The notes under the pieces are model-generated. The model was not told where the DNA came from. It ran no database searches and saw nothing but the letters and a program-made list of their open reading frames with translations. DNA of 35,047 nucleotides from a virus. Lineage: Duplodnaviria > Heunggongvirae > Uroviricota > Caudoviricetes. The position numbers were made by a program, and so were the translations under genes. The DNA is taken from positions 1 to 35,047 of IMG/VR virus record IMGVR_UViG_2534682060_000007; one strand, 5' to 3'. Positions 1 to 35,047 of this stretch are shown piece after piece; positions within the stretch are counted from its first letter, which is position 1; each line of letters begins with the position of its first letter.

Positions 1-1
1 T

Positions 2-442
2 AAAGAAGTGCGTCTGCGTAATGCTTACGTCATTAAGGCTGAACGCGTGGAGAAAGATGCCGAAGGCAATATCACCACCATCTTCTGTACCTACGATGCC
101 GATACTTTAAGCAAAGATCCGGCAGATGGTCGTAAAGTGAAAGGCGTTATCCACTGGGTAAGCGCGGCCCATGCGCTGCCGGTTGAAATTCGCCTGTACG
201 ACCGTCTGTTCAGTGTACCGAACCCAGGTGCTGCGGATGATTTCCTGTCGGTGATTAACCCGGAATCGCTGGTGATCAAACAGGGCTTTGCTGAACCGTC
301 GCTGAAAGAAGCGGTAGCGGGTAAAGCATTCCAGTTTGAGCGTGAAGGTTATTTCTGCCTCGACAGCCGCCATTCCACGGCGGAAAAACCGGTATTTAAC
401 CGCACCGTTGGGCTGCGTGATACCTGGGCGAAGTTAGGTTAA
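2..442 (+). CDS. glnS: glutaminyl-tRNA synthetase, 3' end (ORF runs off left edge of window)
   Basis: Frame open from position 2; C-terminal sequence ...[30 protein letters not shown]...[15 protein letters not shown] recognised as enterobacterial GlnS anticodon-binding region; TAA stop 440-442. Confidence 0.7.
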
Positions 443-2052: not shown

Positions 2053-2958
2053 TTAACGTTCTGCTTCACCACCAACGGCCTCCACCAGCGAAGTGAACAT
2101 CGCGGATAATTCAGCAGTAAACAGGATAAAGTCAGCGTCAAATCGTTGCGCAACATCCTCTCGATCAATATCGTCGTTCTGGTCGTACAATTCGTCGCTG
2201 AACGACAAAGCCTTGATACTCATATCGTCATTCAGTCTGAAAAATGCACGGTCTTGCCAGTTAACCGCAACTGTGGTTGCAACCTTACCAGCTTCTATAT
2301 GACTCATGATCTCGTCGGATAGCAGGTCCACTTTTTTGCAGCGGACCGCGCCGCCATCATCAAGCAATGCTTTTAAGGTCGCTTCCTCACCGGCACGGAA
2401 ACCGTTCGGGAAGCCATTTTTAATCCAGCCAGTGATGGTCAGTTCTAATGGGTCTTTCGGAGAGAAGGGGACAACGGGCAAGCTGCCAAGCGATTTCCGT
2501 AACAAAGCCAGCTGATCCTCTGCTTTTTTAGCACTGCTGGCCTCGACAAAAACCAGATGATTGCTTCGGTCTATCAGGATTTTAGCGACTGATTTTCTCG
2601 TGAAAGCACGAGGAAGCAGAGAGTGAAGCACTTCATCCTTCAGCGAATCTTTTTCAGTCTTCTTCAGCTTTCTGTCTTGCTCTTCTTCAAGTGTCAGGAT
2701 TTTTTTCTGTAACTCTTCTTTGAGCACTTGAGAGGGTAGGATTTTTTCCTCTCGTTTATGCTGTATCAGAAGAAAACCTTGGTATTCATGGGTGAGGTTG
2801 TCGCCAAGAACGGGGGTCCAACCAGCTTTAGCCATATCCTGAGAACCGCATGGGGTAAACACAAACTTGCTAAGGGCTGCATTTACTTCTGCAGTATCCC
2901 AGCTAACTTCGCGTGAAAGACGATAGATGAAGATATTTTTGAAAGCGACTGATCTCAT
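2053..2958 (-). CDS. rdgC: recombination-associated protein RdgC homologue
   Basis: Full-length similarity to E. coli RdgC as recalled (YRLSRE..., [14 protein letters not shown]..., [23 protein letters not shown]..., [18 protein letters not shown]...GGEAER); GGTGAG RBS. Confidence 0.85.
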
Positions 2959-2970
2959 GTCTCACCATTT

Positions 2971-3004
2971 GTGTTAGAAAATACATATTAATTATCTAAC
3001 ACAA
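2971..3004. promoter_or_regulatory. operator-like inverted pair of the recurring TGTTAGA motif (site 1)
   Basis: GTGTTAGAAAAT at 2971-2982 and inverted TATCTAACACA at 2994-3004, in the 60-bp gap upstream of rdgC start. Confidence 0.45.
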
Positions 3005-3017
3005 ATGGGTGCATTTT

Positions 3018-3671
3018 CTATCCTTTCTTGAAATCGAAGTTGCTAGCAGTGGCCTGAAAGGTTCCTCCTGCCTTGAAAGCTATGTCTCCGTTAGCGGTGA
3101 CAGCAATATTTTCCCCTTTAACATTGATGTTGTTGGCTGATTTGACGTTAACACTCCCTCCTGCATTCACGATTACATCAGCCGGACCAATGATATATAT
3201 CTGCCCGGACTCATTCATGCCAATCCTTGAGCCTGCTGCCGTATTGGCAATTTCATAGCCGCCACCAGCAGTTCGTACTTCAAGAATATTGTTGCGGTGA
3301 ATAACGAAGTCTTTCGTTGCTGAGATTTGGGGGCGGGGAGGTGCTCCATCTACTTCCGGCGGCGTCCAGCCGTTGCCTTTGCCAGATGCTTCTGGTGCAA
3401 CGTTTGGAATTCCTCCCGGTGCATCCTGAGCGGCACCAACTATCATTGGGCGTCTGGTGTCTATTCGACCGTTAACATCTAAATAAGGAAACTCTACCCA
3501 GACCAGGTCACCTTTGACTGTGGGTACAAAAGCGTTTCCGATGGGTAACAGGTATTCCGCCCAGGGTAGATCGTCATCAGGAACGCCATTCCAGTCAGGT
3601 AAAACACGGACTTGAGCACGCATAAGCCCTGCCGGGTGCACAGTTCCAACAATTTGCGCTCTACGCTTCAT
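3018..3671 (-). CDS. baseplate-spike-like protein (gpV/gp5-type OB-fold N-terminus plus beta-helical repeat C-terminus)
   Basis: N-terminal pattern GTV...VRV...W...P.G...P..GD.V.V.F reminiscent of P2 gpV/Mu gp45 OB-fold; C-terminal G/N/V-rich repeats (VIVNAGGSVNVKSANNINVKGENIAVTANGDIAFKAGG); start overlaps stop of upstream gene. Confidence 0.5.
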   Translation of the reverse strand: MKRRAQIVGTVHPAGLMRAQVRVLPDWNGVPDDDLPWAEYLLPIGNAFVPTVKGDLVWVEFPYLDVNGRIDTRRPMIVGAAQDAPGGIPNVAPEASGKGNGWTPPEVDGAPPRPQISATKDFVIHRNNILEVRTAGGGYEIANTAAGSRIGMNESGQIYIIGPADVIVNAGGSVNVKSANNINVKGENIAVTANGDIAFKAGGTFQATASNFDFKKG

Positions 3672-6369: not shown

Positions 6370-6672
6370 ATGACCAAAAAAATTAACATAAAGGATTTCA
6401 GGGATGCGTGGCTTGATGATTTTTTTGAATTTTCAACACCACATAGAAAGATACCTCCTGATATTCATATGACATTGTCACGGAAGTTGGACATTATCAA
6501 TGCCGCAACTACCTGTAAGGATTTAAGATCACCACCAGGTAATCGGTATGAGGAACTGTCAGGGAAGCTAAATGGCTATTCATCAGTAAGGGTGAATAAG
6601 CAATATAGGTTAATTTTTAAGTGGGTTAACGGAAAGGCCGAGGACTTGTATCTCGACCCTCACAAATACTAA
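6370..6672 (+). CDS. higB: HigB-like killer toxin (RelE/ParE superfamily)
   Basis: 100 aa; C-terminal YRLIFKW...DLYLDPHKY pattern typical of HigB-like killer proteins; GGAGGA RBS; directly precedes HigA-type antidote. Confidence 0.7.
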   Translation: MTKKINIKDFRDAWLDDFFEFSTPHRKIPPDIHMTLSRKLDIINAATTCKDLRSPPGNRYEELSGKLNGYSSVRVNKQYRLIFKWVNGKAEDLYLDPHKY

Positions 6673-6742: not shown

Positions 6743-7081
6743 ATGAAACAGGCAACCAGAAAACCGACGACCGTAGGTGATATCCTGCTGTACGAATACC
6801 TGGAGCCGTTAGAGCTGAAGATCAACGAGTTGGCAGAAATACTTCATGTTCATCGTAACACCGTAAGTGCTCTTGTTAATAATAATCGTAAGCTAACGAT
6901 GGATATGGCATATCGCCTGGCAAAAGCATTCGATACTTCTGTAGATTTTTGGATTAATCTTCAGACCGCAGTAGACCTGTGGGAAGTCGAAAATGATATG
7001 CGCGTTCAGGAAGAGTTAAGTCGTATCAATACTGCTGAAAAATTTATTTCTCAGCGGAACCTGAATAAAAAAGCAGCCTGA
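6743..7081 (+). CDS. higA: HigA antitoxin (XRE-type HTH antidote)
   Basis: VGDILLYEYLEPLELKINELAEILHVHRNTVSALVNNNRKLTMDMAYRLAKAFDTSVDFWINLQ matches HigA/VapI-type HTH antidote pattern. Confidence 0.8.
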   Translation: MKQATRKPTTVGDILLYEYLEPLELKINELAEILHVHRNTVSALVNNNRKLTMDMAYRLAKAFDTSVDFWINLQTAVDLWEVENDMRVQEELSRINTAEKFISQRNLNKKAA

Positions 7082-12545: not shown

Positions 12546-13487
12546 TTAACTAACAATCCAGTCCATAGCAATAACATCCTCTGGAGCTAAATCAATAGCA
12601 TGGATTTTCCCGTCACGGATGGTGCGCCAGTGCTTTCGTGATCCACCTTCGGGCCACACCCATATACCTTCAGGCCAGGAAGAACGACGACACACTGTTG
12701 CGTATCCAGTCCTGATCTTCTCTCTGACGGTATGTAGTGACAGATTATCCTTTGGGCTTTCAGGCACAGGATGGTGGATTGCCTGAAACATCCCCATCTT
12801 TGGATGATACCAGCGTTTATTGCGTGGTTCTGCCTCCGACATCACCTGCTTAAAGGCTTTCCGGAAGGGGGCCAGGGCCACAATGGAGCGTCGCGCAAGC
12901 AAACCATCTGGAGTTAAAAACTCATGCGTATCGGTGGGAATCCGGAAAGCGTTAACCAGGTTGCGACATTTGGCTTCAGTCAGGCCACATTTCGCCGCCA
13001 GCTGGCGGTAGCCAATGTAGCCTTCCGGAATATTGCCTTTCTTTATTTGCTCGAGTGTTTCAGCGACCATCGATACTTGTGCTGATACCTCGGCTACCTG
13101 GGCATTTACGGCGTTGATCCGGCGTTCATGCTCAAGATGCATTTGCGCCATTTCAGCCAGAATTTCGGCTTTTGATTTTAACTGTACCCGGGCATTCTCC
13201 AGTTCGCGCCAGCGGTCCACCAGCCGGGCGGTGAATTCCGGAGAGAGCTGCGCGACGACAATGATGCTGTCTCGTTTTCCTTGTTCGCCTTCAAAGATGT
13301 AAGCCTTGGAAAATCGACGAGGGCCAACTGATTGTTTATTTTCAATTTCCACAGATTGTGGAAATTGGATCACACTCTTTTTAGCCAGTGTTTCGATAGT
13401 TCTCTTCACACTATCTGGGCGACTTCCTACCAGTTCCGCGATCTCAATACTGGTCATTGTCGCTTTTTGAGAGATGGACAGATTCAT
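12546..13487 (-). CDS. phage antirepressor (Rha/Ant-like)
   Basis: N-terminal TSIEIAELVGSRPDSVKRTIETL resembles the Rha-family regulatory N-domain; 313 aa; start overlaps stop of upstream small ORF. Confidence 0.7.
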   Translation of the reverse strand: MNLSISQKATMTSIEIAELVGSRPDSVKRTIETLAKKSVIQFPQSVEIENKQSVGPRRFSKAYIFEGEQGKRDSIIVVAQLSPEFTARLVDRWRELENARVQLKSKAEILAEMAQMHLEHERRINAVNAQVAEVSAQVSMVAETLEQIKKGNIPEGYIGYRQLAAKCGLTEAKCRNLVNAFRIPTDTHEFLTPDGLLARRSIVALAPFRKAFKQVMSEAEPRNKRWYHPKMGMFQAIHHPVPESPKDNLSLHTVREKIRTGYATVCRRSSWPEGIWVWPEGGSRKHWRTIRDGKIHAIDLAPEDVIAMDWIVS

Positions 13488-13702: not shown

Positions 13703-13885
13703 AATGGCAGCCTCCTTTTGCTAATTTAAGGAGCTACCGCGTGAGGTTCCAATCTCAATGGCGGTAGCACTGACTGGGTTGGAACTACCGGCGCAAAAGG
13801 GAACCGGCCTGCCTTTCGGCAGCCCAGCCAGCACTACCATTGATCTCTGAGCTAAACGCTACGTATGGCTGTGCGATGGCATGAC
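13703..13885 (-). ncRNA. candidate structured leader / antisense-type regulatory RNA upstream of the antirepressor operon
   Basis: Several inverted repeats: 13733-13740/13761-13768 (8 bp), 13763-13778/13823-13838 (16 bp, perfect only with G-U pairs in the minus-strand transcript), GNRA hairpin near 13806-13821. Confidence 0.3.
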
Positions 13886-13887
13886 AC

Positions 13888-13910
13888 AAAAAAAGACGCT
13901 TTCGGCGTCT
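13888..13910 (-). terminator. Rho-independent terminator (minus strand)
   Basis: Hairpin agacgc/gcgtct followed on the minus strand by a 7-U run. Confidence 0.5.
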
Positions 13911-14014
13911 GTGTCGCCTTTTGCATTATCCGGGGTTCCAATCCCGGCACCCGTTTTTCTAAGGTGCCGTAGAAATATACCCCACGATAATGCCAGGGCG
14001 CAACAGTCAGTATT

Positions 14015-24618: not shown

Positions 24619-25113
24619 ATGACCACTTTCACCGACAAAGAACTGATTAAAGAAATCAAAGAACGCATAGGCAGCCTGGACGTTCGAGACAATATTGAGC
24701 GCCGTGCTTATGAAATTGCACTGGCATCACTGGAAGCAGAACCGGTGGTTTACATGTGGGATAGCGAAAGAAAAGATATTGATGCCCCTGGGTATTATCG
24801 GACTGAGCATTTAGTGTTCGCTGAGAGTAGTGTTAAGCAATGGGGAGGGCGAGTTGTTCCACTTTACACCGCCCAGCCAGTGCCGGTAACTCCGGATGGT
24901 TGGATAAGCTGTAGTGAGCGGATGCCTGAAAAGAACCAGAACGTGCTTATTTCGGTGAATTTCGATAGCTCTCTGGTTGAACCGCTAATATGCTCCGCAC
25001 GCTATACCGGAAGCACCTTTCGGCGCGGAGATGCAACGATTAAGCCGGGTAATGGTATTGAGCAAGCAACTCACTGGATGCCGCTACCGGAACCGCCGCA
25101 GGAGGCGAAATGA
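24619..25113 (+). CDS. hypothetical protein (paralogous N-terminus, distinct C-terminal domain)
   Basis: 164-aa ORF in operon. Confidence 0.55.
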   Translation: MTTFTDKELIKEIKERIGSLDVRDNIERRAYEIALASLEAEPVVYMWDSERKDIDAPGYYRTEHLVFAESSVKQWGGRVVPLYTAQPVPVTPDGWISCSERMPEKNQNVLISVNFDSSLVEPLICSARYTGSTFRRGDATIKPGNGIEQATHWMPLPEPPQEAK

Positions 25114-25370
25114 TGGATGTAAAAGAGAAGGTTTTGCAGGTGATGCGTTCCCGGGCTGCCCTGCAAGATAAAGCTCTCGGCGGGGAATATCCATTCAGGA
25201 TGGCAACCTGGAATCTGCGGTTGGCAATGGAGAAGGAATTTCCTGATGAAGAATGGCGTTCGGCAGATTTGCGCAAAATTCTTATGGAGCTGGCTAAAGA
25301 CGGAACAGTATCCAAAGATACCCATGCCAGCCGGATTGGTCAGGCGGTATGGAGACTGGAGGTGAGGTAA
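25110..25370 (+). CDS. hypothetical protein
   Basis: 86-aa ORF, ATGA overlap with neighbours. Confidence 0.45.
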   Translation: MMDVKEKVLQVMRSRAALQDKALGGEYPFRMATWNLRLAMEKEFPDEEWRSADLRKILMELAKDGTVSKDTHASRIGQAVWRLEVR

Positions 25371-25651
25371 TGGCTAACCTGCAACTTGCCGTTAAAGGTG
25401 AATACTTCGATGCCATGATTCGAGGGGAGAAAACGGAAGAGTATCGCCTGTGTAATGACTACTGGAATAAGCGCCTCGTTAACCGTAAGTATGACCGCCT
25501 GATTATCACAAAGGGATATCCGAAGCGCGAAGACTTCAGTCGCAGAATTGACGTCCCGTATAACGGATATGAAATAAAAACAATCACACATCCGCACTTC
25601 GGTGATAAACCGGTAAAGGTGTTCGCGATAAAAGTGAAGATTAATAGCTAA
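25370..25651 (+). CDS. small ASCH-like protein
   Basis: MIRGEKTEEYR matches GxKxxExR; start at internal ATG 25370 (MANLQLAV...). Confidence 0.55.
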   Translation: MANLQLAVKGEYFDAMIRGEKTEEYRLCNDYWNKRLVNRKYDRLIITKGYPKREDFSRRIDVPYNGYEIKTITHPHFGDKPVKVFAIKVKINS

Positions 25652-25674
25652 ATTTCAATTAACACGGAGTAATT

Positions 25675-25968
25675 ATGTGGCGCGGTAATAATCATGGCGG
25701 AAGCCAGATGATACTTACCGAATATACTTTCGACCACAAAACCAATAAATCACGTTCAGTATATTTGCTTCGGCACAATAGCCGCGTAAGAAATACCGTG
25801 CTGGAGCAAAATCTGACCGTCGAAATGGATAATTTAGGAAACTTCAAGCCAACAATATCGCTTGATGATTTTCCGTGTGGTTTAAGCGAAAGAGAAGCAA
25901 TGCTGAAATTAGCAGAATGGTTACAAAGATTAAGCATTGCTATTGAAGATAACTGGATTCAACCATAA
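25675..25968 (+). CDS. hypothetical protein
   Basis: 97-aa ORF in AT-rich stretch with CGGAG RBS. Confidence 0.4.
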   Translation: MWRGNNHGGSQMILTEYTFDHKTNKSRSVYLLRHNSRVRNTVLEQNLTVEMDNLGNFKPTISLDDFPCGLSEREAMLKLAEWLQRLSIAIEDNWIQP

Positions 25969-25992
25969 TGAAAAACAGAAAGAAAGATTGCT

Positions 25993-26202
25993 ATGGCAAC
26001 ATTTAGTAAATTCGCAGTAATTATTATTTTATTAATTCCCCTCACTGTTACAGCAGGGGAACAGCAACATTGCACAAAAGAGAATGAACACCCTTTCATC
26101 GTTATTCAATGCGATGACGGAACGGTGACTGTGGTTAATGTAAGAAATGACCGTGTAGCTGTTTGCCGTAAAGGCGAACCATGCAAGGAAATAAAACTAT
26201 GA
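25993..26202 (+). CDS. small secreted protein
   Basis: Signal peptide MATFSKFAVIIILLIPLTVTAG, mature part with 4 Cys. Confidence 0.45.
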   Translation: MATFSKFAVIIILLIPLTVTAGEQQHCTKENEHPFIVIQCDDGTVTVVNVRNDRVAVCRKGEPCKEIKL

Positions 26203-26948
26203 CAAGAATCACTAAAGAGCGTATTTCAGATATTATTTCCCGTATCGAAATGTATGGTCACGGTGCTGGATACACAGCAGATGAAGTATTGGAACTTGCC
26301 AAAATAGCTTTAGCGCCTTGCAAGGATGGTAAAGCTATGACACTGATTGACTTGTTAGTGAAGGAATTATCTAAGGGGCATGGATGGCCTGATGGAAAAG
26401 ATTTTTGCCATCTATCCATTACGATGCCAGGTAGTAGTCGCGCTACGGTTCTTTTTGGTACGCGCCATAAAAATTACCAATCATCAAAGAATTATTCCAT
26501 TGATGGCATTATTTGCGATATCAGTGACCTTGATCGCAGTGCGTTTACATCGGTTGTCACTCGTGAACAGTATGAAGCAGCTCGCATAGCGTCTCAGAAA
26601 GTCAAGTCTGAAAGTAAGGCTTACAAGTTAGATTTTGAGCAATGGCTGGAGCAGCAACGCGGGGAAATCGATGTGGACTGCGGTTGTGTGTCTGCGGAAA
26701 CATTCATGCACTGGTTGCGGGTAGCTTATGAGGCTGGGAACCATCCGGTTCTTCCGGATGGTTCCCAACAAGCGCCCAGGAAAAGCGTAAAAACCACTCT
26801 GGAAAGAGGCTATCTTGAGGCCGCATTAAAGATTAAGCCGGGCCATACGCTAGGCGTCATTGATGCCATGTTGGTTCATGAAATGGCTAAGGCTTTATTG
26901 CCGCTGGTGGCTGATAAACATGAGGCGGGCCATGCCAACGAAAGCTGA
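26199..26948 (+). CDS. hypothetical protein
   Basis: Start at ATG 26199 (AAGGA RBS, ATGA overlap with upstream stop). Confidence 0.55.
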   Translation: MTRITKERISDIISRIEMYGHGAGYTADEVLELAKIALAPCKDGKAMTLIDLLVKELSKGHGWPDGKDFCHLSITMPGSSRATVLFGTRHKNYQSSKNYSIDGIICDISDLDRSAFTSVVTREQYEAARIASQKVKSESKAYKLDFEQWLEQQRGEIDVDCGCVSAETFMHWLRVAYEAGNHPVLPDGSQQAPRKSVKTTLERGYLEAALKIKPGHTLGVIDAMLVHEMAKALLPLVADKHEAGHANES

Positions 26949-27216
26949 GTTACAGGCTCGCGTAGAGATTCTTGAAAAAGAAAATGCGAGTCTAAAAGGA
27001 ATGCTGGCGCGGGCGGAAAGGGAATTATCAGGCAAATTATTGCCAGAAGAGCTGCCACCAGCAGATATACCTGATCGAGTGTCCTGGTGGATGAAGTATT
27101 TCCGTGTACCGTGGGAGGCGTTTTGGTGCTACGACCATCGCAGATGGTGTGATGAGCTTGATAGCAGTTTCCCCTATTTTGCGGAAGGGAACTCTTGCCC
27201 TGAATGTAGGAGTTAA
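26932..27216 (+). CDS. hypothetical coiled-coil protein with C-terminal CPEC motif
   Basis: Start at internal ATG 26932 (MPTKAELQARVEILEKEN...). Confidence 0.45.
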   Translation: MPTKAELQARVEILEKENASLKGMLARAERELSGKLLPEELPPADIPDRVSWWMKYFRVPWEAFWCYDHRRWCDELDSSFPYFAEGNSCPECRS

Positions 27217-27446
27217 TGATGACCGGCGAGCTTTATTTTAAAATGTTTCTCGTTAGGAGTGCAGTCAAAATTTTTGGGCAATACAGGATCGAGAGGAATG
27301 CGATTAGGCATAGCCAATTCCTTATTAACTGATTGGCAACGAGGTTACGCTGATCCGTTGGTGATGAATAGTAGCAAAGAGCACAAAATCATCAGCGGTG
27401 GTTGATGTACGTAACGCGTTTGCACCAAAGGTGTCCATTTAATGTA

Positions 27447-27466
27447 TACTGTATAAATGAACAGTA
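27447..27466. promoter_or_regulatory. LexA (SOS) box
   Basis: TACTGTATAAATGAACAGTA = CTGT-N8-ACAG with palindromic TA flanks, about 20 bp upstream of humD start. Confidence 0.65.
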
Positions 27467-27485
27467 TTATTGAGGTGAAAACGCT

Positions 27486-27875
27486 ATGGGCTTCCCTTCT
27501 CCTGCGGCGGATTATGTTGAAAGCCGAATTTCTCTTGATCAGCAACTAATCAGGCATCCATCAGCAACCTACTTCATGCGGGCAGCTGATAGCCATCACC
27601 GTGAGGGAATATTGCAAGGTGCTTTGCTGGTGGTTGATTCTTCGCTTACTCCAGTTGATGGTTCGCTGCTTGTGTGCGCTATGGAGGGTGAATATCGCAT
27701 AAAGAGATACAGGAAGTATCCGCGCCAGCACCTGGAGGATTTAAGCACCGGGAAGAAAGAGGCGTTACCAGTAGATGACGATGGATGCACGGGAAGTAAT
27801 GCTGTTTTTGGTGTGATCACTCATGTCATCAATGATGCCCGAAGTGGGGAGTTTGATGATTGTCCGGTTATTTAA
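27486..27875 (+). CDS. humD: UmuD'-like protein lacking the N-terminal tail (P1 HumD-like)
   Basis: Starts MGFPSPAADYVE..., i.e. near the UmuD self-cleavage site; conserved FPSPAADY, HPSATYF, FGVI.HVI segments; GAGGTG RBS. Confidence 0.8.
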   Translation: MGFPSPAADYVESRISLDQQLIRHPSATYFMRAADSHHREGILQGALLVVDSSLTPVDGSLLVCAMEGEYRIKRYRKYPRQHLEDLSTGKKEALPVDDDGCTGSNAVFGVITHVINDARSGEFDDCPVI

Positions 27876-27914
27876 GCTGCAAAGTGCTGGTGCTTTATGC
27901 CTGTGAGGTTTATA

Positions 27915-27940
27915 ATTGTGTACACATAATGAGTACACGA
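27915..27940. promoter_or_regulatory. phd-doc promoter/operator region
   Basis: Palindrome TGTGTACACA (27917-27926) and related GAGTACAC half-site, immediately upstream of phd. Confidence 0.4.
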
Positions 27941-27947
27941 GGTGTTT

Positions 27948-28169
27948 ATGCAATCCATTAACTTCCGTACCGCGCGCGGCAACTTTTCTGAAGTGCTCAA
28001 CAATGTTGAAGCCGGGGAAGAGGTTGAAATCACCCGCAGAGGCCGTGAGCCAGCAGTAATTGTCAGCAAGGCTACTTTCGAAGCCTACAAAAAAGCGGCG
28101 CTGGATGCCGAATTTGCATCTCTGTTTGACACTCTGGATTCCACCAACAAGGAACTGGTTAACCGATAA
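27948..28169 (+). CDS. phd: Phd antitoxin (prevent-host-death)
   Basis: 73-aa product [73 protein letters not shown], near-identical to P1 Phd as recalled. Confidence 0.9.
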
Positions 28170-28549
28170 TGAGGCATATATCACCGGAAGAACTTATTGC
28201 GCTTCATGATGCGAATATAAGCCGCTACGGCGGACTGCCGGGCATGTCAGATCCGGGTAGGGCAGAGGCCATTATCGGGAGAGTTCAGGCCAGAGTTGCC
28301 TACGAAGAGATCACCGACCTTTTCGAAGTCTCCGCCACCTACCTGGTGGCTACGGCGAGAGGGCATATATTCAATGATGCCAATAAGCGTACCGCGCTAA
28401 ACAGTGCGCTGCTATTTCTACGCCGTAACGGGGTGCAGGTATTTGATTCACCTGAACTGGCAGACCTTACCGTAGGGGCTGCGACCGGAGAGATATCTGT
28501 ATCTTCTGTCGCCGACACGTTACGTAGATTGTATGGTTCCGCGGAGTAG
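28169..28549 (+). CDS. doc: Doc toxin (Fic-fold kinase)
   Basis: 126 aa with Fic-type motif HIFNDANKR; overlapping stop/start with phd. Confidence 0.9.
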
Positions 28550-28553
28550 ATTA

Positions 28554-28751
28554 ATGGCACGTAGATACAACAAATTGTCCCGTGAAGCGTTAAAGATGCT
28601 TCTTGATGGCGTGAGTCGCCGCGAGGTAAAGCAATACCTGATTGGTAAGCAAATTGGCGCCAGGACCGCTATTGCTGTGTTATGCCGTCAGGAAATGGTT
28701 GTGCTTAAACAGAGAATGCTTGGTAGCAGGCAAAGTGCTTCCAGTATTTGA
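28554..28751 (+). CDS. small basic hypothetical protein
   Basis: Internal ATG 28554 (MARRYNKLSREALKMLLDGV...), just after doc stop. Confidence 0.4.
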   Translation: MARRYNKLSREALKMLLDGVSRREVKQYLIGKQIGARTAIAVLCRQEMVVLKQRMLGSRQSASSI

Positions 28752-28755
28752 AAAG

Positions 28756-28786
28756 AAGCCCGCCATACCAAGCGGGCTTTTTGTTA
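28756..28786. terminator. Rho-independent terminator between convergent operons
   Basis: Stem gcccgc/gcgggc with 7-nt loop followed by TTTTTGTTATTT. Confidence 0.55.
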
Positions 28787-29560
28787 TTTCACCTCTTCTG
28801 CCGCTGTATCATTGGACTGTTCTTCTTTGGCCCGTTCTGCAATCGCCGCACGGCATTTCGCCCTGGCTATAGCGATTGCTTCAGCTCGCACATCGTCTGG
28901 AATCGTTGACGTGATATACATATCCAGTTCTTCGGCACGGAATACTGTTTGGTCCAGATATTCGCGTAGCATCCAGGTAAATTCGAAATCACACGCGATA
29001 ATCTCTGCGCTACCTTCTGCACCATTTGGGAAATGAATAAATGCCTGTTTAGCCAAACCGATAACACGACATGCGGTTGCCAAAACAGCGACAACCAGGT
29101 TTACATTTTCACACGCTACGGGCTGATTAACGCCGGAGATTACTCCATTTAACTGTCGGTTATATGGAAGGTAGTTTGAGATGCGTTCTACGCGCCATGT
29201 GCCAGTCAGGCTGCCATTTTTAAAGATAATTGGTGTAACGGATAGCCCAAGCTCGCGTATAAGTCGTTGCGCTATAGCAGGATCATTAAACAGGTCTAAT
29301 GCTACACATTCGAAAGACTGCGCAAGGGTAAACAGTTCTTCCAGAGAGTAGTCTTTGCCCCTGGCGGTGATGTAACGACGAACGCCGCTGTCTGCATCAC
29401 TCCATATAGCTACGCCATGCTCTTCATTCAGCTCTTCATTAAAGCCGAGATACGTCATGATAGTGCGTTCAATCGTGTCAAACGGCAGTGACATGTCGGC
29501 GTTAACAGCCACCAGCAGGCCATTACGCAAGCGGTATTGAATTGTTTTGGTGCTTTCCAT
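28784..29560 (-). CDS. hypothetical protein
   Basis: 258-aa ORF, last gene of the leftward operon. Confidence 0.55.
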   Translation of the reverse strand: MESTKTIQYRLRNGLLVAVNADMSLPFDTIERTIMTYLGFNEELNEEHGVAIWSDADSGVRRYITARGKDYSLEELFTLAQSFECVALDLFNDPAIAQRLIRELGLSVTPIIFKNGSLTGTWRVERISNYLPYNRQLNGVISGVNQPVACENVNLVVAVLATACRVIGLAKQAFIHFPNGAEGSAEIIACDFEFTWMLREYLDQTVFRAEELDMYITSTIPDDVRAEAIAIARAKCRAAIAERAKEEQSNDTAAEEVK

Positions 29561-29566
29561 GTCAAA

Positions 29567-30244
29567 TCACTCCACTACAAACCAGTCACATGCCAGTAAG
29601 TCGCCTACAGAAGGAACCCACGGAACAACTACACCTTGTGCATTTTTTAAGGCGAAATAAGCACCATACGGAACGAGGTCGCCGGGGAAATATCCCTTAA
29701 TGGCTTCCATTCGTGCCGGGTACTGTCCTTCAGGAACCAGCCAGCAGAATTGGTTTTCGCCGTTCCACCCGCGTCGAGCAACTTTCTTGCCATCCTTCAG
29801 CCACATCAGCGCGTCAGAAAAGTCGGCTGCTTCAAGGTCGATTTCTTCTTGCTGGATGGTGATGCCACCAGCAGAAATAGTTACGCTCCCGGTAAGATTA
29901 ATCATCACGCCGTTGTCATCCGTAATGATGACCGTGGTTCCATTTTTGGAGGCGTCGTTAACCAGGCCATAGCGTTCCTCAAATGGTTTCTCCGGGGCAT
30001 AGAACAGATAACCGTTTTCATAAACGATCAGATACCCGCCAGTTTTTGGTCGGTGTTTTTGTAAAAACATTGCGTCAACACAAACTGTTGCCCCTTTTGG
30101 TTCAACGAGTTCGATGCAGCCCCACAGTGGGGCATCAGTTACTCCGAAAATAACAACATTTTTGATTTTCGATGCACTAACGTTTTTGTGAGCTTTGTAT
30201 TTGGGAAGGAACTTAAAAAGCTCTTTCGTTGCCATGTTATTCAT
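29567..30244 (-). CDS. two-domain protein with C-terminal DUF2829 (Tad2-like) domain
   Basis: C-terminal FSDALMWLKDGKKVARRGWNGENQFCWLVPEG...PWVPSVGDLLACDWFVVE matches the DUF2829 hallmark (GKKV.R.GWNG) as recalled. Confidence 0.55.
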   Translation of the reverse strand: MNNMATKELFKFLPKYKAHKNVSASKIKNVVIFGVTDAPLWGCIELVEPKGATVCVDAMFLQKHRPKTGGYLIVYENGYLFYAPEKPFEERYGLVNDASKNGTTVIITDDNGVMINLTGSVTISAGGITIQQEEIDLEAADFSDALMWLKDGKKVARRGWNGENQFCWLVPEGQYPARMEAIKGYFPGDLVPYGAYFALKNAQGVVVPWVPSVGDLLACDWFVVE

Positions 30245-30258
30245 AGTCTTTTCTCTGC

Positions 30259-30753
30259 TTATAACTTTTCGTACTGAAGCGGTGAACGCTTAATTTCAAA
30301 GTGGCCTTCCGATGTGCTACCAAAGCCACCAGCACCACGTTCCGTTTCGTTGAGTTCCTCAACCTCGACTAGTGAGACTTGTTCAACACGCTCAAAAATT
30401 CCTTGCATGACAGCCATTCCAGGCTTGAGACAAACGCCTTCCCCGCCGGGATCAGTAATCAGTTTTGCCATGATTTCACCGCGATAATCGGAGTCGATAA
30501 TTCCTACGCAGTTAGCCAGGCGAGTATGTTTTTTGCAGCCCAATCCGGATCGCGGATAGAGTTTCAGACACCAGCCGGGCGGGATCTCCATAGCCAGTCC
30601 GGTATACACCCACCAGCTTGAGGAAATTGCACCATTGCTATCGACGCATGGTTTTATTTCAACAGCCTCAAAATCCATCGCCGCCGATCCGGAGGTGGCA
30701 TAAGCTGGAAGTTTTGCTGCCGGATGTAGGCGTTTCACTTTTACGTAAATCAT
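30259..30753 (-). CDS. dut: dUTP diphosphatase
   Basis: dUTPase motifs AYATSGSAAMDF, RSGLG, IIDSDYRGEI, RGAGGFGSTS. Confidence 0.85.
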   Translation of the reverse strand: MIYVKVKRLHPAAKLPAYATSGSAAMDFEAVEIKPCVDSNGAISSSWWVYTGLAMEIPPGWCLKLYPRSGLGCKKHTRLANCVGIIDSDYRGEIMAKLITDPGGEGVCLKPGMAVMQGIFERVEQVSLVEVEELNETERGAGGFGSTSEGHFEIKRSPLQYEKL

Positions 30754-31226
30754 TGTTTTTTAGCTCTCTGCGTGAAGGTGTAAACCCGACGTTTGATATG
30801 TGGAACGGTAGGAACAGGAAGACAGGAACTTTCAATAACCCCTTGCCCCTCCAGCGATCGCACCGCCCGCAAGAACTGCGACGTGTCGCCGCCAAACTGG
30901 CGGGCATAGGTGCTGCCGTTATGAAGTATTTGAGCTATTACCCGAGCTTTTGTCTGGCTGTCACGATATGCGAATAGCCGCACGGCCTCTTCTGGCGCAA
31001 TCGCTAACTGATAGCCTTTCCCGGCACGGTGTCGAATGAATCCATGCGCCAGTAGGTTTTTGAGTTCGTTACGAGTGCGAACAGATCCGTAATCCAGGAA
31101 GTGTGGATTGATAACGACTGGCTTAAACCATTCCGTAGGTGCTTTAGCTAATAGAGCTAACAGCTTCCCGGATAATTCTGGATAGGAAGACGGGTAACAA
31201 TTCAGAGATGGGTAATAAGTTTTCAC
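30750..31226 (-). CDS. hypothetical protein
   Basis: 158-aa ORF, ATGA-type overlap with dut. Confidence 0.5.
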   Translation of the reverse strand: MKTYYPSLNCYPSSYPELSGKLLALLAKAPTEWFKPVVINPHFLDYGSVRTRNELKNLLAHGFIRHRAGKGYQLAIAPEEAVRLFAYRDSQTKARVIAQILHNGSTYARQFGGDTSQFLRAVRSLEGQGVIESSCLPVPTVPHIKRRVYTFTQRAKKQ

Positions 31227-31567
31227 CGACGCCCCCTTGCAGGATATCGACCTGCATTAGTATCCGGTGCAATAAAGCCGGTAGTGGGGCGAGTGAAAGC
31301 GAGATTAATCTTCTCGACCATAGTGCGATAATTTTCCTGATAGTGGGCCAGGAGTTTTTCGGCGGCAATGATGGTTACTTTCCGGACGTAGCTTTCTGCT
31401 TCCTCCAGATTTCGCCAGTTTTTTTCGAGGGTAAACACAGGGACGGCCTCAAGCCCGGTCATGATGCCGAACACAACGACAGCATGACTGTTCTTAACAC
31501 CAGCGGCGAAGGTTACGGTGTAACAATCCACCTTGAAGCGTCTTGATTCCGTGATTTGACTCTGCAA
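31223..31567 (-). CDS. hypothetical protein
   Basis: 114-aa ORF, first gene after motif site 5. Confidence 0.5.
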   Translation of the reverse strand: MQSQITESRRFKVDCYTVTFAAGVKNSHAVVVFGIMTGLEAVPVFTLEKNWRNLEEAESYVRKVTIIAAEKLLAHYQENYRTMVEKINLAFTRPTTGFIAPDTNAGRYPARGRR

Positions 31568-31621
31568 AGCACCCTCCTAAATAGGCGAGGGTACTTTACA
31601 GCAAAGGCGTCAATCTAAAAA

Positions 31622-31640
31622 GATGTGTTAGAAATTTAAT
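31622..31640. promoter_or_regulatory. recurring motif site 5 (GATGTGTTAGAAATTTAATT)
   Basis: In the 73-bp gap between the Cre-like gene and the downstream operon. Confidence 0.4.
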
Positions 31641-32669
31641 TTACGAATCCATCAGGCGGCTATTAGCCCCCACAGACACGCCGCCACGGCGAAGATACCG
31701 CATAAGTGTTTCCGGTTTCTTCCAGGTTCCTTCCTGCATGATCTCCACCATAGACACCTGCTTTTCAGCCATATCAATAGCGGCCCCGACACGTGCACTA
31801 TGCCCGGTCCACGTCCGGTATCTTCCTTTGTTTGGCGTAGCATCTCTTTTATTCAGCAACACCCAGGCGTCGCTGAATATTTTCTCCATTGCAGGTGCAG
31901 TAAGGGGCGTTGTCGTGATCCTGGCCTTATTGCTACGGTGTATCGGCGGGAACAGCACTGCGTCAGGATGTTCGCGAAGCCCGGAAACATCCAGCCAGTC
32001 ATTCAGCACAGCGGTAGTGCGACGGGAAAGCACCTTATCAAGCCCGGCGGCGGTCGTTATTGTCTTCGTGTGTGAAATATGTAGCGTGACAGTGTCACCT
32101 GTTTGGTCCAGATCTCCTACACGAATACGCGAGATTTCCGACATACGCATCAGCGTATTGTATGCAACAAAGAGAAAAGCCCGGTTGCGCAGGTCCACCA
32201 GCCGTTCTGACCTGGACAACAGGACGTCGAGCAGTTTCAGATCGTCCCACCGCAGCGGTATAGCCTGGCCTGTTCGTTCGCCTTTTTCAGTTGCCGCTTC
32301 GCGCCGGATGCGCCGCATAGCCAGAGAAACACTTTTATCATCCGAAAGTGGCGGAAGACCACAATGCGAAAGCAGCATGTTCAGCATGGCGTAGTGCTTA
32401 TCAATGGTGGTCGAAGCCAGATCGGCATCATGCAGCTGAAGAAAATACTCGCGGGCCATTTCTGGTGAGATCGGAAACCAGGCAAGCTGGCGAGCGTGAC
32501 ACCAGCGCGCCCAGGAATGAAACACCAACCGGAGGTCGCGCAGAGTATTCGGCGCATAAGCCCCCTGGTCATTCATGAACCGCATAAAGTTTTCTGCGGC
32601 TTCCTGGTACTCTTTGCCAATGTTGCGCAGAAAACCACCGGAACTGCCAGAGATAATTAATTCACTCAT
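31641..32669 (-). CDS. Cre-like tyrosine site-specific recombinase
   Basis: Collinear similarity to P1 Cre as recalled: SWARWC, WFP, VSLAMRRIRRE, AYNTLMRMSEISRIRVGDL, HISHTKT, WTGHSARVGAAIDMA, EIMQEGTW, catalytic Tyr in LMRYLRR. Confidence 0.85.
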   Translation of the reverse strand: MSELIISGSSGGFLRNIGKEYQEAAENFMRFMNDQGAYAPNTLRDLRLVFHSWARWCHARQLAWFPISPEMAREYFLQLHDADLASTTIDKHYAMLNMLLSHCGLPPLSDDKSVSLAMRRIRREAATEKGERTGQAIPLRWDDLKLLDVLLSRSERLVDLRNRAFLFVAYNTLMRMSEISRIRVGDLDQTGDTVTLHISHTKTITTAAGLDKVLSRRTTAVLNDWLDVSGLREHPDAVLFPPIHRSNKARITTTPLTAPAMEKIFSDAWVLLNKRDATPNKGRYRTWTGHSARVGAAIDMAEKQVSMVEIMQEGTWKKPETLMRYLRRGGVSVGANSRLMDS

Positions 32670-32820
32670 GAAACTATTTCACCTCTATATACAGATGACG
32701 CTACGCGAAAAATATAAAAATGACAGGGTAGCTATAAGTTAATTTTCAAAATACAAGCCTTTGATTCGAGGCACGTATTTTCAGTGATGTCAACACTGTT
32801 CATCTACACATGATTATAGC

Positions 32821-32854
32821 CTAACTTTAAATAATGCCAATTATTTAAAGTTAT
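32821..32854. other. candidate lox-like recombination site (13-bp inverted arms, 8-bp spacer)
   Basis: CTAACTTTAAATA-ATGCCAAT-TATTTAAAGTTAT; arms match 12/13 to each other and 10/13 to the loxP arm ATAACTTCGTATA; about 150 bp upstream of the Cre-like start. Confidence 0.45.
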
Positions 32855-33032
32855 AAAATGGCGATTTTTTTTAATCCATCACAGATTGATTGCTGACCAG
32901 TAACACGTTGCCTTCATGGTCTTTAATTTGCGAAGCGTGGTTTATACAGTTGGTTTTCTAAAATTGATGACAAAAAATCACAGTTCGATCCTTTACTCAC
33001 TCTGTTATTCGACATAAATTTGTCATAGTAAT

Positions 33033-33052
33033 TTTATGTTAGAAAACTAAAT
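33033..33052. promoter_or_regulatory. recurring motif site 6 (TTTATGTTAGAAAACTAAAT)
   Basis: About 13 bp upstream of the 33065 start codon; a related TTTTCTAAAATTGA lies at about 32955-32970. Confidence 0.4.
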
Positions 33053-33064
33053 CGAGTAGGAATA

Positions 33065-34102
33065 ATGAGTAAGAAGTCGATCGAGAAAGAGTACAAACGG
33101 TTCCTGCAAACCGCTGAACGGTGGAAAGAGCTGGTGGTCGCAAACTCTGTTTTCCATGATACCAGTTATGCTGGCGAGGAATTCCGCCATGTTGCATTAA
33201 CGCATGACCAAAACATATTAGAAGAAGCTGAAAAATGTCTTGCTGAATGGAAAGCCTTCGTTGACATGTGCCGCGATGCCGACGGCAAAGCGTCGAACAT
33301 TGTTGAGTCTGTATATTCTCCGATCCCATTCATCATTGAGGACACCAATCAAAGCACGCATGTTGTTGTGCAAAGCGCTACAACAACACGTACATTTACA
33401 CGTGAACAATTGCTCAAAAAATACGACAAAATCATAAAGAAAAGCCTGAAAAATAGGGTTTTTTCTCAAATCGTAGGTGCTCTTGAAGAAGAACAGCGCT
33501 TCTTTGAAGCTGAGCCTGAAGGCGAGATCTACCGGGCGCGTAAAGAGGCATATACAGATGTTGTGCTGACAACAAACATCGAAGGCAGCAATGCCCTTTC
33601 TCGCTTTAGAGTTGGCGCACATGGCGCATTGGTTTTCGCAAAACTACCGAAGACAACAATCCCCGTTGTCAATAATGTTGGTGAGCGCCGGAGCATTACA
33701 ATTTATTCTGGCGTCGAATCGGTACCTTGCAGCCTTCTCGGCGATTTTAACTTATATCGTGTTCGTGACCTGGAAAAACACCAGCCAAGCTACGTTGCGA
33801 AGTCGTACATCTTAAGGAACATCGATATTCGCAATGAAAGCCTTAAGCAGAAATCCGCTAAGATGCTGGAGGATGCCGATCCGGCTATTCGCCATATCAT
33901 TGAGCGTAAGATACGTACATCACGTGAAGCAATGGCAAGGCTGGATAAAATGGATCTGGAATTGTTAGACGTAATGATGGCCTCTGGAGACGACCTGACC
34001 GGCATAAAACTGAATGAAGCTCGTAAAAAATACGGCAAAGCAATCGAAGAACGTTACGGATACACATTCCCCCAAACGCAGTACGCCGCGAAGCTCTGGT
34101 AA
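33065..34102 (+). CDS. hypothetical protein (345 aa) between the lox-like site and terminase
   Basis: Isolated gene flanked by AT-rich intergenic DNA and a terminator hairpin; no recognisable catalytic motif. Confidence 0.6.
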   Translation: MSKKSIEKEYKRFLQTAERWKELVVANSVFHDTSYAGEEFRHVALTHDQNILEEAEKCLAEWKAFVDMCRDADGKASNIVESVYSPIPFIIEDTNQSTHVVVQSATTTRTFTREQLLKKYDKIIKKSLKNRVFSQIVGALEEEQRFFEAEPEGEIYRARKEAYTDVVLTTNIEGSNALSRFRVGAHGALVFAKLPKTTIPVVNNVGERRSITIYSGVESVPCSLLGDFNLYRVRDLEKHQPSYVAKSYILRNIDIRNESLKQKSAKMLEDADPAIRHIIERKIRTSREAMARLDKMDLELLDVMMASGDDLTGIKLNEARKKYGKAIEERYGYTFPQTQYAAKLW

Positions 34103-34111
34103 TCACAACCG

Positions 34112-34137
34112 GCCCCGCATCGCGGGGCTTTATATAT
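34112..34137. terminator. terminator hairpin between convergent genes
   Basis: Stem gccccgc/gcggggc with 3-nt loop followed by TTTATATAT. Confidence 0.45.
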
Positions 34138-35047
34138 CCAGATCCGGCATTTCGATATCCGCCAGAACCTGATCTCGGAAAGTTGCCATTTCGGCACCAA
34201 TATCTTCATTAGCAGGCACATAGTCCACCAGCATAGTGAAGCAGTAGGTATCCCATCGGTCAGGCGATTTGATGTTTAGCTTTTGCCGCATGTGCTCTTT
34301 GCGCATCATCGCCATTTTCCCTTCTTCATTCAGTAAAAAGGGTATTTTTGACGCTTGCTCTGCCGTTTTAGGGTCACTGTCTATCCGCATACGCCCTGAC
34401 TTTATGGCATCTCGCGCCATAATATTTGCGTAGGCACGCTGATTAACAAATCGCTCCCTGTCTTTGTTCGCAAACATGGGTTTTCCCCACCGAATACGTA
34501 CCGGGTTCGCACCACGACGCACCAACTGCGCACACGTATCAGAACCAAAACCATCAGCATCAACCGCGATTGTTATATTCGGGTATTTTTCCGGCGTACA
34601 TTCGTTATATATGAAGTCAGCAAAGGCCAATGGGTCCATAGTGCCAGGCATCTCCATTACCTTAAAGTTAACAACGCGCCGCTTATCCCTGTGACCAGAT
34701 ACCTTGCAGATGTTGAGGACCGACTTATCTCGCCCATTACCAACGTCAGCCGTTGCCACCCATCCCCAGTTTTTCTCCAACAACACCTTGCGGCGAGCAG
34801 CGCGATCGCATTCATCACGACCAAGCAAATAGCCGTTAATTTCTCGTGGGAACTGACCAAGCACCTTGACCATGTACTCAATAGAATCGCGCCCGCCATA
34901 TTCCAGAAGCTTCTGCTTGATGAATTGTGGTGTGACGAACGGTGATTCTTCCGAGTTAAGAACAATTGCTGTCCAGATCCCTTTCGGGTTGTCTGGGGTT
35001 TTTGCTTGAGAATGGTGCGAATCGTAGAAATAACCACTTGGCCTTGT
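34130..35047 (-). CDS. terminase large subunit, C-terminal nuclease region (N-terminus beyond right edge)
   Basis: Frame open to the window edge; C-terminal IAVDADGFGSD and SPDRWD acidic motifs consistent with a terminase RNaseH-like nuclease domain. Confidence 0.5.
   Translation of the reverse strand, partial: TRPSGYFYDSHHSQAKTPDNPKGIWTAIVLNSEESPFVTPQFIKQKLLEYGGRDSIEYMVKVLGQFPREINGYLLGRDECDRAARRKVLLEKNWGWVATADVGNGRDKSVLNICKVSGHRDKRRVVNFKVMEMPGTMDPLAFADFIYNECTPEKYPNITIAVDADGFGSDTCAQLVRRGANPVRIRWGKPMFANKDRERFVNQRAYANIMARDAIKSGRMRIDSDPKTAEQASKIPFLLNEEGKMAMMRKEHMRQKLNIKSPDRWDTYCFTMLVDYVPANEDIGAEMATFRDQVLADIEMPDLDI

Follow-up and report, generated by a model that had tools for sequence, protein, structure and literature searches.

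The window, that is, the whole 35,047-nt stretch of DNA that was analysed, contains a block of four co-oriented genes, humD, phd, doc and pdcA, which is preceded by a LexA (SOS) box and closed by a terminator-like hairpin (Table 1). The four genes follow one another in the order and at the spacing seen in phage P1, where they form part of the lxr-humD-phd-doc-pdcA region (AF234172.1, 87398-88827), and the DNA of the locus is ~97% identical to that of P1, P7 and more than a thousand P1-like plasmids.

Table 1. Features of the humD-phd-doc locus and its surroundings, in window coordinates.
Feature	Position	Strand	Basis
3' end of glnS, the only chromosome-like gene	1-442		protein nearly identical to E. 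coli GlnRS
Two ORFs in the DNA replacing lxr	26181..26948 and 26932..27216	+	function unknown
lxr remnant, 32-codon ORF	27213..27311	-	codons 1-22 = P1 Lxr; alignment with P1 and plasmid pF16EC0589-1
Candidate -35 of humD promoter, TTGCAC	27420..27425	+	inferred; TT(G/T)CAC kept at fixed distance from the box
Candidate -10 of humD promoter, TATACT	27445..27450	+	inferred; last 4 nt = first 4 nt of LexA box
LexA (SOS) box, TACTGTATAAATGAACAGTA	27447..27466	.	match to P1-annotated LexA site
Shine-Dalgarno-like GAGGTG of humD	27472..27477	+	sequence reading; kept in relatives
humD, pre-processed UmuD' homologue (S24 peptidase fold), 129 aa	27486..27875	+	PF00717, phrog_811
Pphd: -35 at 27888-27893, -10 TATAAT at 27911-27916	27888..27916	+	transferred from P1 annotation
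Phd/Doc operator site 1, perfect palindrome TGTGTACACA	27917..27926	.	identity to P1
Phd/Doc operator site 2, imperfect palindrome TGAGTACACG	27930..27939	.	P1 comparison
phd, antitoxin, 73 aa	27948..28169	+	PF02604; 72/73 to P1 Phd / PDB 3HRY
doc, toxin, 126 aa (Fic-fold kinase)	28169..28549	+	PF02661; 126/126 to PDB 3K33 P1 Doc
pdcA homologue, last gene of the co-oriented block	28554..28751	+	phrog_3345; P1, D6 and plasmid annotations
Intrinsic-terminator-like hairpin, 11 pairs + T run	28753..28782	.	closes humD-phd-doc-pdcA block; faces convergent genes downstream

The product of humD passes the Pfam cutoff for Peptidase_S24 (PF00717, E = 5.7e-9) and matches both the UmuD-like family phrog_811 (E = 7e-55) and the structure of UmuD' (PDB 1UMU, E = 2e-23), which aligns with HumD across its whole length. 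Residues 2-116 of HumD align with residues 25-136 of UmuD (8GMT_B), residue 2 being the counterpart of Gly25 of UmuD and of residue 1 of the crystallised UmuD', and the Ser/Lys dyad is kept as S36 and K73. Unlike UmuD, HumD is devoid of the 24-residue N-terminal pro-segment and of the Cys-Gly cleavage site. Because it begins at the equivalent of Gly25, HumD is a pre-processed form of the protein, in agreement with the original prediction of a pre-processed UmuD' homologue, and with neither pro-segment nor cleavage site, the RecA-mediated processing step is not needed. Given that 127 of its 129 residues are identical to those of P1 HumD, the protein probably has the same function; according to the note in the P1 record, P1 HumD complements UmuD', and interaction with UmuC and RecA as well as support of SOS mutagenesis are reported there. 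The search for a umuC partner covered the window only, a 35 kb part of the ~92 kb element, and revealed neither an ORF of at least 400 aa nor a polymerase-domain match among the 30 ORFs scanned. From P1, HumD is reportedly poorly expressed, a finding ascribed to McLenigan and colleagues in 1999.

The start codon of doc overlaps the stop codon of phd (TAATG). Phd matches the PhdYeFM_antitox family (PF02604, E = 2e-13) and differs from P1 Phd by the single replacement L13F, and Doc, a member of the Pfam Fic/DOC family, is identical to P1 Doc throughout and retains the intact catalytic motif H66-IFNDANKR, which fits the signature HxFx(D/N)(A/G)N(K/G)R; the direct comparison of the proteins thus bears out the original prediction that both are nearly identical to their P1 counterparts. 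The spacer between humD and phd is 72 nt long, with 70 of the 72 positions identical to P1, and includes TATAAT, which the P1 record labels at the homologous position as the -10 hexamer of the sigma-70 promoter Pphd, and, directly 3' of it, the palindrome TGTGTACACA, both as in P1. As a 10-mer palindrome, TGTGTACACA is statistically unremarkable when taken alone (0.76 occurrences expected at up to one mismatch) and is accepted as an operator because it is identical to the corresponding part of the P1 Pphd/operator region, in which two palindromes lying side by side are bound by the Phd-Doc complex (PMC13034048, PMC4803016). The palindrome that had been said to resemble the Phd operator is, accordingly, site 1 of the P1 operator. 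Within site 2, the window differs from P1 by a C to T replacement at position 27930, which is C in P1 and in 75 of 75 relatives. The Phd F13 and operator T27930 variants make up a rare haplotype, the carriers found being L084, two Salmonella plasmids and the plasmid pZ1323HEC0010-2. We considered L13F and the replacement at 27930 as a compensatory pair, given that the two co-occur in every carrier found, and rejected this interpretation: the carriers share the whole haplotype, so that the linkage reflects descent and is no evidence of co-adaptation.

The box upstream of humD is of the gammaproteobacterial type, as is the operator of E. coli umuDC. Such boxes are imperfect palindromes of 20 bp, TACTG(TA)5CAGTA, in which the core CTG-N10-CAG does not vary. 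TACTGTATAAATGAACAGTA agrees with the idealised sequence in 17 of 20 positions, all three mismatches falling within the central spacer, and both of its arms, TACTGTAT and ACAGTA, are intact. When the idealised sequence was searched for with up to three mismatches, TACTGTATAAATGAACAGTA was the sole match in the 35 kb window, and no such match appeared in any of 100 dinucleotide-preserving shuffles. The shorter pattern CTGT-N8-ACAG occurs in the window once, as part of the same box, with 0.34 occurrences expected by chance, and no credible CTG-N10-CAG that might represent a second LexA site, such as a coi-type site near c1, was detected elsewhere in the window. The end of the box is separated from the humD ATG (27486) by 19 nt. 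In P1, the 20-nt box is the same base for base, and the P1 record (AF234172.1) labels this 20-mer "LexA binding site in the regulatory region of lxr and humD"; humD is described as LexA-regulated in PMC9603915 and PMC10695390. By extension of the P1 annotation, LexA can be expected to bind at 27447-27466. The proposal that a consensus SOS box lies ~20 bp before a UmuD' homologue therefore holds, with the addition that the box is unique in the window and identical to the P1 site.

Given their common orientation, humD, phd, doc and pdcA could be perceived as a single SOS-inducible operon, such that DNA damage would raise the expression of phd-doc independently of Phd/Doc auto-repression. No terminator-like site was found between humD and phd, the first strong one being the hairpin at 28753-28782, past pdcA, and the RNA of the spacer folds no better than its shuffled versions (z = +1.0), so that read-through from the presumed LexA-controlled promoter is physically possible. 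Moreover, in a survey of 80 IMG/VR loci that encode HumD at 96-100% identity and were collected by a single-protein HumD search, the 72-nt spacing of humD and phd is constant in 76. However, among relatives this similar, the fixed spacing is attributable to common descent, not to selection. Furthermore, phd-doc possesses its own characterised promoter and operator, at which bound Phd/Doc could stop an elongating polymerase, and phage D6 tolerates an ORF of 423 nt between humD and phd. Each of the two parts also occurs without the other: humD is found without phd-doc in the phages Cyrano and CMS-2020a, and phd-doc without humD on conjugative plasmids (313 conjugative records in the mobility counts), as also stated in the P1 record, in which a misc_feature that begins where humD ends describes phd-doc with its promoter as occurring alone on such plasmids. 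By these comparisons, humD and phd-doc are neighbouring modules that evolution can separate, and a single SOS-inducible operon appears unlikely. Conceivably, SOS induction could de-repress the humD promoter, with transcription then passing Pphd and its operator and continuing into phd, doc and pdcA, so that damage would transiently override auto-repression and reset the toxin:antitoxin ratio. We consider this scenario quite unlikely; if true, it would make the addiction module damage-responsive and thus more than a pure sensor of loss.

The question of which gene the box serves arises from the P1 annotation itself, in which the site is common to lxr and humD. The box might mainly serve the divergent lxr gene ('LexA-regulated function'), with humD only incidentally adjacent, and a minus-strand candidate promoter obtained by relaxed hexamer enumeration, TTCACC-18-TATACA, indeed overlaps the box. 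The survey of relatives argues otherwise. The CTG-N10-CAG core is found 18-19 nt upstream of humD in 80 of the 80 loci, in the form of 15 sequence variants of the box that differ mostly in the spacer, and it is there regardless of the left flank, of which there are three or more versions, with the intact P1 lxr in 35 loci, the truncated type seen in the window in 22 and other types in 23. Apart from the block AATGTATACTGT...ACAGTA, all that these left flanks have in common is the hexamer TT(G/T)CAC, whose distance from the box is fixed. The box is likewise kept in D6-type elements, which are without any lxr. Beyond the relatives with 96-100% identity, conservation was assessed in two diverged phage-plasmids, Cyrano (OV696614.1) and CMS-2020a (CP054387.1), with ~85% DNA identity to the window in humD. 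Both encode a pre-processed HumD of 129 aa whose start codon is preceded, at a distance of 16 nt, by a LexA box, which reads TACTGTATGTGTATACAGTA in Cyrano and TACTGTGTAAATGAACAGTA in CMS-2020a; in contrast to the window, their upstream DNA is unrelated and no phd-doc follows downstream. The distance from the box to humD is, then, 16-19 nt throughout, whereas the lxr ATG lies ~135 nt away from the box and, in the window, belongs to a mere 32-codon remnant. A box that functions primarily for lxr is thus very unlikely. Because the box is retained near humD in all 80 relatives and in two diverged phages without lxr and phd-doc, it belongs to humD and, as judged from this distribution, it is with humD that it travels, not with lxr or phd-doc.

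The location of the humD promoter is a related problem. A stringent sigma-70 scan of positions 27000-29000 detected no promoter around the box and missed the characterised Pphd too; it is therefore uninformative here, and was replaced by the relaxed hexamer enumeration combined with conservation. The best candidates for humD in this enumeration have 8 matches out of 12 and a spacer of 18-19 nt, with TTGCAC or TGCACC (27420-27426) as the -35 element, and the likeliest promoter would join one of these hexamers to the -10 TATACT (27445-27450), which runs into the left arm of the box. In three left-flank lineages that are unrelated to one another, TT(G/T)CAC stands equally far from the box, and in CMS-2020a TTGCAC is placed as far away as in the window but next to an unrelated spacer, with TATACT again overlapping the left arm; in Cyrano, the arrangement is TTCAAA-17-TATACT, with the same overlap. 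P1 differs in having G at the equivalent of position 27445, where the A of the window is the first base of the candidate TATACT. Given that there is no stringent promoter match and that the candidates reach only 8 of 12 with an 18-19 nt spacer, the start of humD transcription is uncertain. For P1, the record predicts a sigma-70 promoter, PhumD, ~480 bp upstream, within lxr, in DNA that is deleted in the window: since lxr is truncated here by a different left flank, the predicted PhumD of P1 is absent. If humD really depended on that far-upstream PhumD, the gene would have no promoter in this element. Probably, the functional promoter of humD is a local one that overlaps the LexA box, as opposed to the distant PhumD predicted for P1.

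Comparison with P1 and D6 reveals the composite nature of the region. To the left, homology to P1 ends at ~27245, within lxr (an apparent start of the homology at 27300 is only a query boundary, the breakpoint being set by the alignment). To the right, it ends within pdcA, at ~28729, and P1 pdcB is replaced by convergent genes of the D6 type. In D6 (MF356679.1, orf107-orf112), the genes downstream of humD, phd, doc and pdcA are the convergent ones also seen in the window, and the D6 backbone is that of the window throughout, including glnS, higBA, immI, dut, the dre recombinase, pacB and c1. Within the locus, by contrast, D6 has the variant TACTGTATGAATAAACAGTA of the box, not TACTGTATAAATGAACAGTA, and its operator site 1 is TGCGTACACA, not TGTGTACACA. 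Furthermore, humD of D6 is directly preceded by a remnant of a hot-like ORF, with no lxr, and the 423-nt ORF between humD and phd is an inserted gene, orf109, whereas the window is as compact here as P1. A D6 backbone with a compact, P1-type humD-phd-doc segment implies that the window is a P1/D6 mosaic, which fits the published description of this region as variable and recombining in P1-like phage-plasmids, with the humD-phd-doc cluster common to subgroups (PMC9603915).

The wider context is that of a plasmid prophage. Phage D6 covers 75% of positions 1-25000 of the window at 95.6% identity, the remaining part (25000-35047) matches D6 through to the dre recombinase, pacB and c1, and the window as a whole is colinear with D6 and with P1/D6-type plasmids of ~90-96 kb. 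The best whole-segment matches in PLSDB and among complete E. coli genomes are all plasmids of 74-96 kb, of which those checked are typed as non-mobilizable. The window also contains the immI C4 antisense RNA, and Pfam matches identify a Dam-type methylase, RdgC, a tyrosine recombinase, a dUTPase and a HigB/HigA pair. The DNA of the glnS fragment at the left end shares 99.8% identity with the copy carried by the 92.8 kb plasmid pZ1323HEC0010-2, as against ~94-95% with chromosomal glnS, and there are 77 plasmid-borne copies of glnS in complete E. coli genomes. To the right of glnS, the DNA is colinear with D6 and with plasmids of ~92 kb; D6 itself has an annotated glnS (orf62) and, according to PMC6799933, all D6-like plasmid prophages carry this gene. 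It is highly improbable, then, that the module is chromosomal, be it as a part of a P1-like prophage, integrated or decayed, or as a domesticated toxin-antitoxin system beside glnS: the window does start inside a glnS gene with a product nearly identical to E. coli GlnRS, and many of its genes (ead/Ea22, PAPS reductase, Rha-like) also match chromosomal lambdoid prophages, but the glnS DNA, the colinearity, the exclusively plasmid best matches, the presence of immI, the dre recombinase, pacB and c1, and the published occurrence of glnS all point to a plasmid. The one claim of the original prediction that has to be abandoned is that the addiction module is contiguous with a chromosomal gene. The gene in question is almost certainly glnS, of which a copy lies at 1-442; because glnS is established cargo of D6-like plasmid prophages, the chromosomal context was a misreading and, in the setting of a plasmid prophage, phd-doc would be doing its normal job.

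Taken together, these observations make it very probable that the locus is the humD/phd-doc region of P1, residing on a D6-type P1-like phage-plasmid and consisting of two modules, one putatively under SOS control and the other expected to provide addiction. As regards the binding of LexA, the location of the promoter and the activities of the proteins, what is known of P1 and E. coli suggests how the two modules might work. Host LexA bound to the box would cover the -10 element of a weak local promoter and keep humD off, and DNA damage would free this promoter through RecA-stimulated self-cleavage of LexA. HumD would then be made directly as the active, UmuD' form, which could pair with host UmuC for translesion synthesis. 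phd-doc, in turn, would be transcribed from Pphd (-10 at 27911-27916). Auto-repression of this promoter is expected, with Doc bridging the Phd dimers that occupy the adjacent palindromes (27917-27939) and with excess Doc relieving the repression, a behaviour known as conditional cooperativity. Should the plasmid prophage be lost, labile Phd would decay, and stable Doc, a kinase of EF-Tu, would arrest translation; such post-segregational killing would stabilise the prophage, as could be expected from the identity to P1 and the plasmid-prophage context. The bridged auto-repression, conditional cooperativity and phosphorylation of EF-Tu by Doc have been described previously (PMC4803016, PMC13034048).

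On sequence grounds, every element of the locus is nearly identical to a P1 feature that has been characterised and annotated, occurs in its normal plasmid-prophage setting and, as such, is already known. Two modest additions are made here: comparative evidence ties the LexA box to humD, and it makes a local promoter overlapping the box the probable one for this gene. D6-like prophages have been described as carrying both phd-doc and higBA (PMC6799933). The element studied here is a D6-type plasmid prophage that combines the textbook P1 addiction module with a second toxin-antitoxin pair, higBA, and a ready-made analogue of UmuD' that is predicted to be LexA-controlled. The toxin-antitoxin pairs and HumD bear on the stability of such plasmids and, possibly, on damage-induced mutagenesis in their hosts.

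In phage D6, a 423-nt open reading frame, orf109 (positions 2943-3365 of the D6 locus, L002), is inserted between humD and phd and, therefore, the humD and phd-doc modules can be non-contiguous. The humD loci of Cyrano and CMS-2020a, two phage-plasmids of ~108 kb with diverged humD genes, lack phd-doc, and in Cyrano, humD is adjoined downstream by a gene for a MinD/ParA-like protein on the opposite strand. In both of these phage-plasmids, the LexA box is retained although the flanks are unrelated.

Examination of the upstream region of humD revealed a substitution in the sequenced P1 laboratory strain (c1.100 mod749::IS5, L001), which has G at the position homologous to 27445 of the window (AATGT[G]TACTG), the sole such case among 38 distinct upstream sequences; as a result, the candidate -10 element TATACT becomes TGTACT. 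The HumD protein of P1 is said, in a 1999 report by McLenigan et al., to be poorly expressed and, speculatively, the substitution might bear on this. A pair of linked differences involves phd and its operator. In operator site 2, upstream of phd, the window contains T at 27930 where P1 and all 75 relatives compared contain C, and residue 13 of Phd (27984) is phenylalanine, as opposed to leucine in all others compared. Both variants occur jointly in L084, two Salmonella plasmids (CP100711 and CP100729) and pZ1323HEC0010-2, and among the sequences compared, neither was found without the other; the haplotype is rare. Judging by this distribution, the linkage between T27930 and Phe13 looks like common descent rather than compensation.

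On the other side of humD, the divergent lxr gene is cut off past codon 22, and recombination has supplied two plus-strand open reading frames; this type of left flank is common, being present in 22 of the 80 relatives. The homologue of one of these frames, which encodes 94 amino acids, is labelled 'antitoxin PHD' in the plasmid record CP088384.1. A Pfam scan of the window's 94-aa frame detected no PhdYeFM match, and the label is probably a misannotation passed on between records.

Features of the window and of the diverged humD loci
Feature	Coordinates	Strand	Evidence or note
Plasmid-borne glnS (glutaminyl-tRNA synthetase), 3' end, last 144 codons	1-442	+	DNA comparison
HigB-like RelE toxin gene	6370-6672	+	PF05015, E = 4e-35
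HigA-type HTH antitoxin gene, after the HigB-like toxin gene	6743-7081	+	type II TA pair
Rha/Ant-like gene, adjoining the immI region	12546-13487		
C4 antisense RNA	13757-13844	-	Rfam match, 76.7 bits
isrK	13889-13967	-	Rfam match, 62.5 bits
94-aa ORF	26932-27216	+	phrog_3797
lxr remnant, breakpoint about 27245	27213-27311	-	alignment
225-aa protein, C-terminal Tad2-like domain (Thoeris anti-defence 2)	29567-30244	-	PF11195, E = 1.9e-22
dUTPase, phage-plasmid-encoded	30259-30753	-	PF00692
LexA box, Cyrano	L089 866-885		16 nt upstream of humD ATG
LexA box, CMS-2020a	L090 910-929		16 nt upstream of humD ATG

Downstream of pdcA, the window shares with D6 a convergent block that includes the dUTPase gene. 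The gene for the Tad2-like domain protein lies two genes 3' of doc, and D6 orf114 matches the C-terminal half of this protein alone. At the DNA level, the glnS fragment is 99.8% identical to the copy in a 92.8 kb P1/D6-type plasmid, but its identity to the chromosomal glnS of E. coli drops to ~94-95%; 77 plasmid copies of glnS were found in complete E. coli genomes, and this cargo gene is known from all D6-like prophages (PMC6799933). The C4 antisense RNA and isrK matches (13757-13967) identify the immI immunity region. Because a HigB/HigA-type pair is present besides phd-doc, the element carries two addiction modules, as is likewise known for D6-like prophages (PMC6799933).
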